In this document: positions 7,978-11,162 of the stretch, piece by piece
Position numbering within the stretch: the stretch's first letter is position 1
Layout of the letters: each line of letters starts with the position of its first letter
Virus record (IMG/VR): IMGVR_UViG_3300012346_000007
Location: 1 to 38,407 of that record
Length of the DNA: 38,407 nt
From: a virus
Lineage: Duplodnaviria; Caudoviricetes
Strand: one strand, 5' to 3'
Program-made: the position numbers and the translations under genes
The notes under the pieces: generated by a model
Database searches by the model: none
What the model was told of the DNA's origin: nothing
What the model saw: the letters and a program-made list of their open reading frames with translations, nothing else

Positions 7978-8208
7978 ATGTCCAAAGGATATGCGAGTAG
8001 CTTTATCAATGAGGTAAATGCTTCGGACAAATCCAAGATAGGGGTACAGCTGGGAATCGTATGCACCAAACGGGATATTCCTGTAACTGATGTGTCTGAT
8101 TTCTTTACTGTATCCCGCATGACGGTCTACTCTTGGTTTCGTGGTAAAACTAATGTCCCTGAGAAACATTGGGACAAGATGAAAAAACTTGTTGATAAAT
8201 TGAAATAG
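7978..8208 (+). CDS. Small Cro/XRE-like HTH protein
   Basis: VTDVSDFFTVSRMTVYSWFRG HTH pattern and GAGGAG RBS. Confidence 0.75.
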   Translation: MSKGYASSFINEVNASDKSKIGVQLGIVCTKRDIPVTDVSDFFTVSRMTVYSWFRGKTNVPEKHWDKMKKLVDKLK

Positions 8209-8214
8209 TTGTGT

Positions 8215-8297
8215 GGGGGGCTAGGTTAGCTACCGAAAAGGATATACCGCCGTCTATCCCTGCCCATCCCTTTTTATAATGACGGCTAAAGGCGGCT
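8215..8297 (+). promoter_or_regulatory. Putative cis-regulatory RNA structure in the primase leader
   Basis: Stems GGGC 8218-21/GCCC 8262-65, GGT 8224-26/ACC 8232-34 and GGATA 8240-44/TATCC 8255-59. The loop TACCGCCGTC is complementary to 8281-8286 and 8291-8295. Confidence 0.55.
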
Positions 8298-11162
8298 ATG
8301 TTAAATACAAATGAATTCTTATCTGCAATACTTCCCGACAGTGGGTCGTACTGTGTGGTAGGACTAAAAATAGATGGAAGCCCAAGACAAAAGTTTGTGG
8401 GAAGTATCGAGGAAGTAAACGCTCTAGCACAGAAATTAGTAGAAGAACAATACAATGCCTACTTTGCTTTAGCTTCGTTTACTGACCCAAAAGAAGGCAG
8501 AACTGCCAAGAATGCACAGGCTTTAAAGTCTTTCTTTATTGATATTGATTGTGGTATGGGTAAACCCTATGCCGACCAAGCTGAGGGTATGAGCGCCCTT
8601 AAAGCGTTCCTTAAAGCTACAAAGCTACCTAAGCCTACTGTGGTCAATTCAGGCAACGGTATCCATGCGTATTGGGTGCTTAGCGAGGCTTTGCCTAGCG
8701 CTGAATGGAAACCCCTAGCCGAGCAATTTAAAATGCTCTGTGCCATGCACAAGTTCGAGGCAGACCCATCGGTTACTGCGGATACTGCACGCATACTGCG
8801 TATTCCAAACACCCTTAATTTTAAAGATCCACAAAACCCAGTCCCAGTAGAGGTATTACTTACAAGCCCCCTGGTTGCTATATCAGCTATAAAAGATGTT
8901 ATACAGACTTGTGTTGGTGGTGAGGATATTTTTGCTGGCATGACAGGTCAGCCGTTCGTACCCCGTCAAATGGATGCAATGACCCTAGCGTTAATGGGTA
9001 ACAACATCTCACGATTCAAGACGATTATGATTAAGAGCGCCGAGGGTACAGGTTGCCCACAACTCTTACATATTTACGAAAACCAAGCGACAATAGATGA
9101 GCCTCTTTGGAGAGGAGGGCTAAGTATTGCCCAAGCGTGTGTGGATAGGGATAAAGCCATCCATAGCCTGTCTAAGCGCCACCCTAGTTATTCAGCTAGT
9201 GAAACAGAACGTAAGGCTAATGAAACAAAAGGTCCTTACACCTGCGCTACATTTAAGAAACTAAACCCAAGTGCTTGTCAAGGATGCCCTCATACATTTA
9301 CTTCCCCTATTCAATTAGGTAAGGAGTTTAACGAGGCTACCGAAGAAGACAACACAGTAGAAGTTCCAGCAGTAGAAGAAGGTGAAGCGCCAACAATCTA
9401 TCAGATTCCTAAATACCCATTCCCATATACACGGGGAGCGGCTGGTGGTATCTACACCAAGATGAAGGACGAAGAAGGCGTAGAAGAAGTAATGATGATT
9501 TACCCATACGACTTTTATGTAGTCAAGCGTATGAACGACCCTGATAGGGGGGAAAGTCTTTTAATGCGTTTGCATTTACCAAAGGACGGCGTTAAAGAAT
9601 TCATCATGCCTTTGACAGATGTGCTGGCTAAAGATAGATTTAGAGATGCAATCGCTAAGCAGGGCTTGGCAGTATTAGGTAAGAAACAGGACATACTTAT
9701 GGCTTATATAACACGGTGGGTAGAAGAATTGCAAGCAAGCACAGAAGCAGAATTGGCACGTAAACAGTTTGGTTGGTTGCCTGACGACTCAGCATTTATT
9801 CTTGGGGATAAGGAGATTACCGCTACTGAGATTAAATACAGCCCTCCTACCGCTACGACCATTGAACTCGTACCTATGTTCAGAGAGAAAGGTGACTTCC
9901 ATGTTTGGAAAGACGTCATCAATGCGTATGCTAGAGAAGATATGGAGGCTAAGGCTTTTGCTTTCTTTATGGGCTTTGGCAACACACTATTGAAGTTTAC
10001 TAACCTCAAGGGCTACTTACTTAGTCTTAAATCTCAAGGGTCTGGGTCTGGTAAGACGACTGTATTGCACACCATTGGTAGTATCTATGGGCACCCTGAA
10101 GATAGCTTTATGCGGGTTAAGGACACATACAATCAGAAGCTACAACGTATCGGTACATTCCAAAACATCCCTATCTTGTTTGATGAGATGACCAATATGG
10201 ATCCAATGCAGAAGTCTAACTTAGCTTATGACATTACCGAAGGACGTGCTAAGAACCGTATGCAGTCTCAAAACAATGCTGAGCGTCTTAACCATACTAA
10301 GTGGGCAACAGGGTTAATTACCTCTACTAACCGCTCACTACGTGATGACTTGCTTTCTATCAAGGCTTTTCCTGAAGGCGAACTGATGCGTATGATGGAG
10401 TTGCATATCTTTAATGACGCTAACGACGATCCAGTATGGGCAAGACAACACTTTGGAAGACTGCACACTAACTACGGGCACGCTATTTTCCCATTCATGC
10501 AGTACGTGGTTGGTAATCTGCCTGAAGTAATTGCGTTCCTAGGGACTATCCAAACCAAGATTGAAGCGGCGGCAGATATTAAATCTCAAGAACGTTATTG
10601 GTCAGCTATGGCGGCTATCGCTATTGCAGGTGGGATTATTGCTAAGAACCTAGGGCTACACAACATTGACCATAGACCCGTAATGGCGTACATCATTAAG
10701 CATATTAAAGAGTCTAGAACGCAGAACACACAGATGGTGGCTGAGAATAGCGACTTCCTTAGTGGGTTTATCCAGCGTAAGTTCCATGAGGTATTGGTTA
10801 TTAACGGCAAGCACGACCATAAGACAGGCTTGGAGACAGGTCCGATTAGAGAGCCACGGGGTTCATTGACTGCACGTTATGAGCCTGATACAAAGCTTTT
10901 GTATGTGGTAGCCAAGGAATACCGTTCAGAGTGCAACAAAGCGCAGTTAAACTTTGACGAGTCATTAGCTATGCACAAGAAGAGTGGGGCTTATTTAGGT
11001 CAGAAACGCAAGCGTATGACTTCAGGTACTATTGTGGATACCAATCTAAATGCACCAGCCTTGGTATTCGATGTAACTAAACTGGAGTTCTTCCGTGAAG
11101 AAGTTTTACTAAATGCTAAAGATTCTGAATCAGATATTCTTGATCCCGTGGAAGCGACTTGA
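8298..11162 (+). CDS. DNA primase-helicase (AEP/RepB-type primase + DUF927-like + P-loop helicase)
   Basis: AEP-like motifs FFIDID, SGNGIHAYW and ARILRIP; Cys cluster C...CQGC; FGW; Walker A GSGSGKTT; Walker B ILFDE. Confidence 0.88.
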   Translation: MLNTNEFLSAILPDSGSYCVVGLKIDGSPRQKFVGSIEEVNALAQKLVEEQYNAYFALASFTDPKEGRTAKNAQALKSFFIDIDCGMGKPYADQAEGMSALKAFLKATKLPKPTVVNSGNGIHAYWVLSEALPSAEWKPLAEQFKMLCAMHKFEADPSVTADTARILRIPNTLNFKDPQNPVPVEVLLTSPLVAISAIKDVIQTCVGGEDIFAGMTGQPFVPRQMDAMTLALMGNNISRFKTIMIKSAEGTGCPQLLHIYENQATIDEPLWRGGLSIAQACVDRDKAIHSLSKRHPSYSASETERKANETKGPYTCATFKKLNPSACQGCPHTFTSPIQLGKEFNEATEEDNTVEVPAVEEGEAPTIYQIPKYPFPYTRGAAGGIYTKMKDEEGVEEVMMIYPYDFYVVKRMNDPDRGESLLMRLHLPKDGVKEFIMPLTDVLAKDRFRDAIAKQGLAVLGKKQDILMAYITRWVEELQASTEAELARKQFGWLPDDSAFILGDKEITATEIKYSPPTATTIELVPMFREKGDFHVWKDVINAYAREDMEAKAFAFFMGFGNTLLKFTNLKGYLLSLKSQGSGSGKTTVLHTIGSIYGHPEDSFMRVKDTYNQKLQRIGTFQNIPILFDEMTNMDPMQKSNLAYDITEGRAKNRMQSQNNAERLNHTKWATGLITSTNRSLRDDLLSIKAFPEGELMRMMELHIFNDANDDPVWARQHFGRLHTNYGHAIFPFMQYVVGNLPEVIAFLGTIQTKIEAAADIKSQERYWSAMAAIAIAGGIIAKNLGLHNIDHRPVMAYIIKHIKESRTQNTQMVAENSDFLSGFIQRKFHEVLVINGKHDHKTGLETGPIREPRGSLTARYEPDTKLLYVVAKEYRSECNKAQLNFDESLAMHKKSGAYLGQKRKRMTSGTIVDTNLNAPALVFDVTKLEFFREEVLLNAKDSESDILDPVEAT

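Follow-up and report, generated by a model that had tools for sequence, protein, structure and literature searches.

What occupies the 89 nucleotides between a small HTH gene and the primase-helicase gene of this phage, and could it set how much primase-helicase is made? The window, by which we mean the whole 38,407-nucleotide stretch of viral DNA analysed, is a 38 kb virus record that is 58% complete; sequencing runs containing its DNA are mostly freshwater or aquatic. Its plus-strand replication block comprises a DNA polymerase, an exonuclease, an SNF2 helicase, the small HTH gene and the primase-helicase, and the virion and lysis genes are opposed to it. The HTH gene (Cro-like; 7978–8208, plus strand) is an open reading frame with weak HTH matches below cut-off, and its homologue in locus L054 matches several HTH families. 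The primase-helicase gene (8298–11162, plus strand), which we predict to be the regulated gene, encodes 954 amino acids matching DUF927 (E = 3e-28) and the primase/helicase families phrog_25314 and phrog_8841. The gap from the HTH stop (8208) to the primase-helicase ATG (8298) is filled by an RNA element. Two RNA runs contain the region as assembled contigs: one contig in X17 ends at 8274, in the U-tract of the element, but one in X20 spans 8247 to 8515.

All parts of the element lie on the plus strand. Stem P1 is formed by 8215–8221 (core GGGC 8218–8221, extension 8215–8217) and 8262–8270 (core GCCC 8262–8265, extension 8268–8270), with the HTH stop 12 nt before the core. Within it are the P2 hairpin (8224–8234; GGT 8224–8226 and ACC 8232–8234 around the loop TAGCT 8227–8231), the junction strand GAAAA (8235–8239; GAAGA in relatives) and the P3 hairpin (8240–8259; GGATA 8240–8244 and TATCC 8255–8259). 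P3 presents the targeting loop TACCGCCGTC (8245–8254), which includes CCGCC (8247–8251) and GCCGTC (8249–8254). A U-rich linker follows (8271–8280, with five T at 8271–8275); linkers are 43% T across the family. Box 1, GACGGC (8281–8286), is the predicted decoy partner of the loop, and box 2, GGCGGC (8291–8296), overlaps a Shine-Dalgarno (SD)-like AAGG (8289–8292), as located by the pairing and SD analyses (8289–8296). Reading the sequence confirmed all three stems, the GAAAA linker, the loop and the T-tract where an earlier note on this DNA had placed them, along with both loop complements, GACGGC at 8281–8286 and GGCGG at 8291–8295. GCCGTC is also able to pair with GGCGGC (8291–8296) through one G-U; therefore, a single repeat underlies both boxes. 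The junction strand varies between GAAAA and GAAGA, often behind a cro-like gene, and these two sequences are also those of the boxB loops of lambda nutR and nutL; in the window, 8235–8239 is a junction strand and forms no hairpin loop.

The earlier note regarded the RNA as possibly novel and proposed an Rfam search, which identified it. Between 7900 and 8500, int-alpA (RF02996) was the only family at E≤10; the IncI/IncB models gave no match. The element aligned to all 71 model positions (8214–8285, plus strand) with 33.5 bits (E = 4e-5 in a 601-base search), 2.3 bits below the curators' cut-off of 35.8. Thus int-alpA surfaces by E-value only: no Rfam family matched the window at gathering threshold, and a whole-record search at E≤0.001 returned no int-alpA match. 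The three-stem model, with its CUAG, CGAAAAG and CCUG junction strands, was fitted full-length with identical junction letters, and its stems covary. One of five leaders of the same primase exceeded the cut-off (L040, 37.7 bits), as did 6 of 18 primase-family loci (four fell under it and eight gave no match) and 14 of 20 hand-picked pattern matches. Because the full model is matched and homologues pass the cut-off, the RNA is not new, and on sequence grounds we file the window copy as a putative, slightly low-scoring int-alpA member, one that precedes a primase-helicase. A hammerhead ribozyme was also considered and dropped, as there is no CUGAUGA core.

The int-alpA motif is reportedly due to Weinberg et al. 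2017. The string "alpA" is absent from the main text of PMC5737381, and a literature search for int-alpA, RF02996 and the motif returned no account of a two-box pairing, the probable source being a supplement outside its coverage. Where "int-alpA" does occur, it is an RNA entry in an E. coli table or, elsewhere, a term for genes. In an excerpt of Fremin 2023 (PMC10690425), RF02996 appears eight times in the list of known families that DNA viruses yielded; the family is thus already known and was previously recovered from viruses. The Rfam consensus has a loop, CCuUua, complementary to its tail, uaAgGG, and the pairing of the loop with box 1 may therefore have been described there already. The 71-position model does not extend to box 2. 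Rfam classes int-alpA as an sRNA, whereas our data suggest that cis leader would be the better label.

Taken singly, the window sequence folds no better than its shuffles (z = +0.38 to +1.39), and the three-way junction comes out as the fold of lowest energy for 8215–8270 and 8210–8280 only. The earlier note had named covariation between loop and target in homologous leaders as the check on its proposal, and such covariation is present. In 26 aligned primase leaders, P1, P2, P3 and loop/box 2 were 97.9% paired, compared with 39–58% in slid-register controls, and double changes occurred at 8 of 18 pairs. P2 exchanged U-A for G-C in 8 of 26 rows, and four of the five P3 pairs showed double changes. 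In the GAAAA junction strand, G, A, A and the last A were invariant in all 26 rows; CUAG, CGAARAG and CCUG, conserved in these leaders, which were collected without a DNA pattern, are upper-case in the Rfam consensus. Loop and box changed together in separate branches of a quick tree of the primase family: loop GCCGUA accompanies box 1 UACGGC (L037), AUCGCC accompanies box 2 GGCGA(U) (L027–L034), ACCGUC accompanies GACGGU at both boxes (L350), UCCGUC accompanies box 2 GACGGA (L323) and AUGCCAA accompanies UUGGCAU (L354).

We located 52 loci by their primase protein. The element could be seen by eye in 48, was absent from three distant ones, and one had no upstream DNA. A junction was parsed in 68 of 140 unique primase rows and in none of the other 72. 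Two boxes were present in 52 of 52 distinct parsed primase-linked elements, at a threshold looser than that used family-wide (at least 4 Watson-Crick pairs, G-U allowed). The second complement lies on the start codon in L354 and L361; together with L094, these are leaders in which it covers the start codon and first codons instead of the SD. By eye, box 2 was weak or missing in L330, L349, L351, L375 and L388. Reduced leaders ahead of the same primase make up a natural deletion series (L371:1120-1200, L373:1130-1200, L375:1130-1195): L371 and L373 lack P2 and GAAAA and keep the hairpin, loop and two boxes, their relative L369 being complete, and L375 has lost P2 and GAAAA and keeps the hairpin, the loop and box 2 only. 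In L380, L381 and L383, a different, longer, G/C-closed structured leader, as judged by eye, stands before the primase instead of the element.

The two-box arrangement extends well beyond primases. A junction pattern retrieved 121 viral and 120 genome loci; a stems-only filter kept 122 of the 170 viral loci that were parsed, giving 70 distinct loops, and dropped 48, some of them real-looking. Sixty of the 70 distinct loops had a match of at least 5 and a separate match of at least 4 Watson-Crick pairs within 60 nt downstream, against 16.8% when loops and tails were permuted (maximum 32.9%) and 7% upstream. In held-out bacterial genomes the same filter kept 18 of 120 loci, 15 of which had both boxes; among the 102 that failed, the 35 with a usable loop gave 12 matches versus 7.8 permuted. 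With the primase group left out, two matching boxes were found in 58 of 69 loci versus 8.8 when loops were swapped (maximum 20, of 10,000 derangements). Likewise without that group, the loop matched its own −16 to +1 region in 46 of 62 loci versus 5.4 swapped, and its box 1 region in 42 of 62 versus 3.0. The SD-side match is therefore loop-specific, beyond purine richness. Loop complements peaked 0–40 nt downstream only. A 4967-base contig (L122, L123) carries the element twice, at a distance of about 1.1 kb, with different loops and boxes that match them. Cultured carriers of the family include Shewanella phage X14 and a prophage of E. coli CEC15.

The geometry of the pairings was examined in the members that have both boxes (80 of 88). 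In 74 of these 80, box 1 begins 12–19 nt after the core; in 71 its helix meets the 3′ end of the loop without a gap, and in 70 there are 1–4 loop bases left free on the 5′ side. An H-type pseudoknot that stacks on P3 has just such a flush 3′ helix and a few free 5′ loop bases, and the predicted geometry fits it. At least 4 loop bases are common to both boxes in 74 of 80, and the boxes are therefore mutually exclusive. Where an SD is present (62 members), box 2 covers at least part of it in 51. Together with the covariation and the swapped-loop controls, these shared bases sustain the central proposal of the earlier note, a cis-acting three-way junction whose loop has two mutually exclusive targets, one at the translation start. 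The stronger partner was box 1 in 46 of 80, box 2 in 23 and neither in 11 ties, with a median gap of 0.6 kcal/mol between the two helices. Simple energies thus favour the open state and leave closing unexplained. Internal wobbles were G-U rather than A-C at box 2 (12 versus 1, confounded by G-rich SDs) and in P3 (17 versus 3), and no such excess was seen at box 1 (20 versus 16) or P1 (12 versus 9); this bias is evidence for plus-strand RNA pairing at box 2 and in P3 but offers none for box 1 or P1.

The earlier note had made two further observations here. The primase was said to lack the GGAG ribosome-binding site used by its neighbours; GGAG is indeed absent, but the absence of a ribosome-binding site is not supported: AAGG lies five bases before the ATG, its anti-SD duplex, at −6.5 kcal/mol, is comparable to those of many other genes, and GGAG occurs at only 6 of the 26 starts examined in the window. 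A complement between TTAGC in P2 and GCTAA downstream is likewise present in the sequence, but a P2-loop pairing is not supported and was rejected: it occurs in 6 of 52 primase-family elements, and in 8 of 88 across the whole family, where permutation gives 8.1.

Among 53 downstream proteins scanned, some of whose starts may be mis-called, 17 were replication initiators, loaders or primases, bearing out what the earlier note said of similar motifs ahead of other phage replication genes. Twelve were HNH-type endonucleases, two more carried NUMOD3, two were antirepressor/Rha proteins, one was an integrase (L110) and one a helicase; the rest were other or unknown. Upstream, the element recurs either directly behind a Cro-like gene or directly behind a sigma-70-like promoter (11 of 67 versus 5 shuffled, with 8 sites ending 5–12 nt before the core), so coupling to an upstream gene is not required. 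Among 19 primase-linked loci, 17 place the upstream stop 12–17 nt ahead of the core. Outside the primase group the stop falls at 11–18 nt in 12 of 47, a distance that is not conserved, and one phage carrying the element has a divergent upstream gene; on both counts, translational coupling as a family-wide requirement was rejected. In two loci (L057:619-758, L091:607-762) int-alpA begins 3 nt past the last tRNA of a tRNA cluster. Within the HTH gene of the window, TGACGGT (8120–8126) is another loop match; RNA-less relatives (L052) carry it too, and it is therefore probably protein-driven.

Building on features seen directly (the stems, both loop complements and the way these covary with the loop, the loop bases they share, and the placement of box 2 on the initiation site), we favour, with reasonable though far from complete confidence, a cis translational toggle in which box 1 would park the loop and leave the SD open, box 2 pairing would close it, and the balance would cap primase-helicase initiation. 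The int-alpA copy likely folds within the primase-helicase message. Box 1, transcribed first, would capture the loop in a decoy pseudoknot, with the initiation site open. Because only a small energy difference separates the two helices, the loop could then migrate from box 1 to box 2, closing the site. A box 2 pseudoknot would hide the SD and so cap translation. As the loop matches both the decoy and the ribosome-binding site, protein synthesis is likely dialled down, and because the exchange would be poised in energy, the element would be a built-in throttle requiring no dedicated factor. More speculatively than any other step, a ribosome halted at the HTH stop just before P1 may tip the balance in this phage group.

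A throttle that works passively gives no reason for a junction so nearly invariant. The main competitor addresses this feature: the conserved junction would bind a host metabolite, ion or protein and tip the loop between boxes, as in a translational riboswitch. Conservation of CUAG, CGAARAG and CCUG in both primase leaders and Rfam consensus favours it, as does the energetic poise of the two helices. However, the 53 downstream genes share no common metabolic theme, and the junction-less L371 and L373 still keep loop and boxes, so we regard it as a minority reading, a good deal less probable than the unaided toggle. We are similarly tentative about the broader idea that int-alpA is an unrecognised riboswitch-like phage class, whose invariant junction senses a host molecule and whose re-programmable loop moves from decoy to ribosome-binding site, timing replication initiators, primases, antirepressors and homing endonucleases.

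A trans-acting RNA, excised or terminated at the U-tract and targeting the boxes of new transcripts like the phage P4 CI RNA, would agree with the sRNA type given by Rfam, the two tandem targets downstream and the presence of at least 5 T in the 8 nt after P1 in 44 of 88 members. We think it improbable: each target offers only 5–7 bp, the fixed short spacing and H-type geometry indicate cis pairing, and one loop is common to many different phages. As excerpted in PMC4825925, the P4 CI RNA with seqA/seqC resembles our element in being structured, in preceding replication genes and in having complementary sites close by on its downstream side. It differs in that our element has short targets, no C4-type Rfam match and no seqA-like upstream target (no peak within 600 nt in 53–70 loci); the element is not a P4 CI system. 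Marginally less probable still is a transcriptional role, with P1 and the U-tract acting as a leaky terminator behind the cro-like gene and the box pairings secondary. The extended P1 does end at 8270, directly before the T5, and a Cro-like gene precedes the element here and in three O-like loci; against this, no plus-strand terminator was called, half of the family lacks the U-tract, both boxes lie beyond the stop point, and box 2 covariation would go unexplained. That the three motif copies, two direct and one inverted and adjoining an HTH gene, are protein-binding DNA sites rather than RNA pairings is very improbable, given that the inverted copy always sits within a covarying hairpin loop in H-type register, that wobbles are biased at box 2 and P3, and that upstream genes vary and include tRNAs.

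The cis toggle also differs from the plasmid systems to which the earlier note likened it. In the part of a review (PMC4705826) that covers IncI-alpha ColIb-P9 repZ and IncB repBA, a pseudoknot activates translation by opening a separate SD-hiding hairpin, a leader-peptide stop is needed, and antisense Inc RNA competes. As described there, the likeness is that a hairpin loop pairs near the SD of a replication gene and controls its translation; the difference is that our element has one loop and two cis targets, one of them the SD region itself. The comparison stands as a loose analogy, but two of its particulars are absent from the window: there is no separate SD-hiding hairpin, the loop pairing the SD region directly, and there is no adjacent leader-peptide stop, the upstream stop ending at 8208, 72 nt before box 1. 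An antisense RNA is not supported: the promoter-like site shows no conservation in relatives (0 of 19 and 3 of 69, fewer than after shuffling), and the window has one 9/12 minus-strand promoter-like site where 1.4 are expected. The excerpted account of the T4 gene 32 leader pseudoknot and T4 homing endonuclease SD hairpins (PMC3014915) similarly describes RNA structure limiting translation of phage replication and endonuclease genes, there through a protein-nucleating pseudoknot far upstream or simple hairpins rather than a junction with two exclusive targets.

We estimate that the loose pattern occurs in about 3,800 viral stretches, part of them by chance. The proposed toggle gives this orphan, widespread phage RNA family a precise, testable mechanism, and the window locus contributes an extensive primase-linked set that includes paired changes, forms without the junction, and losses. 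The toggle would be a compact switch with a re-targetable loop, and a portable means by which phages limit replication and nuclease proteins that are sensitive to dose.
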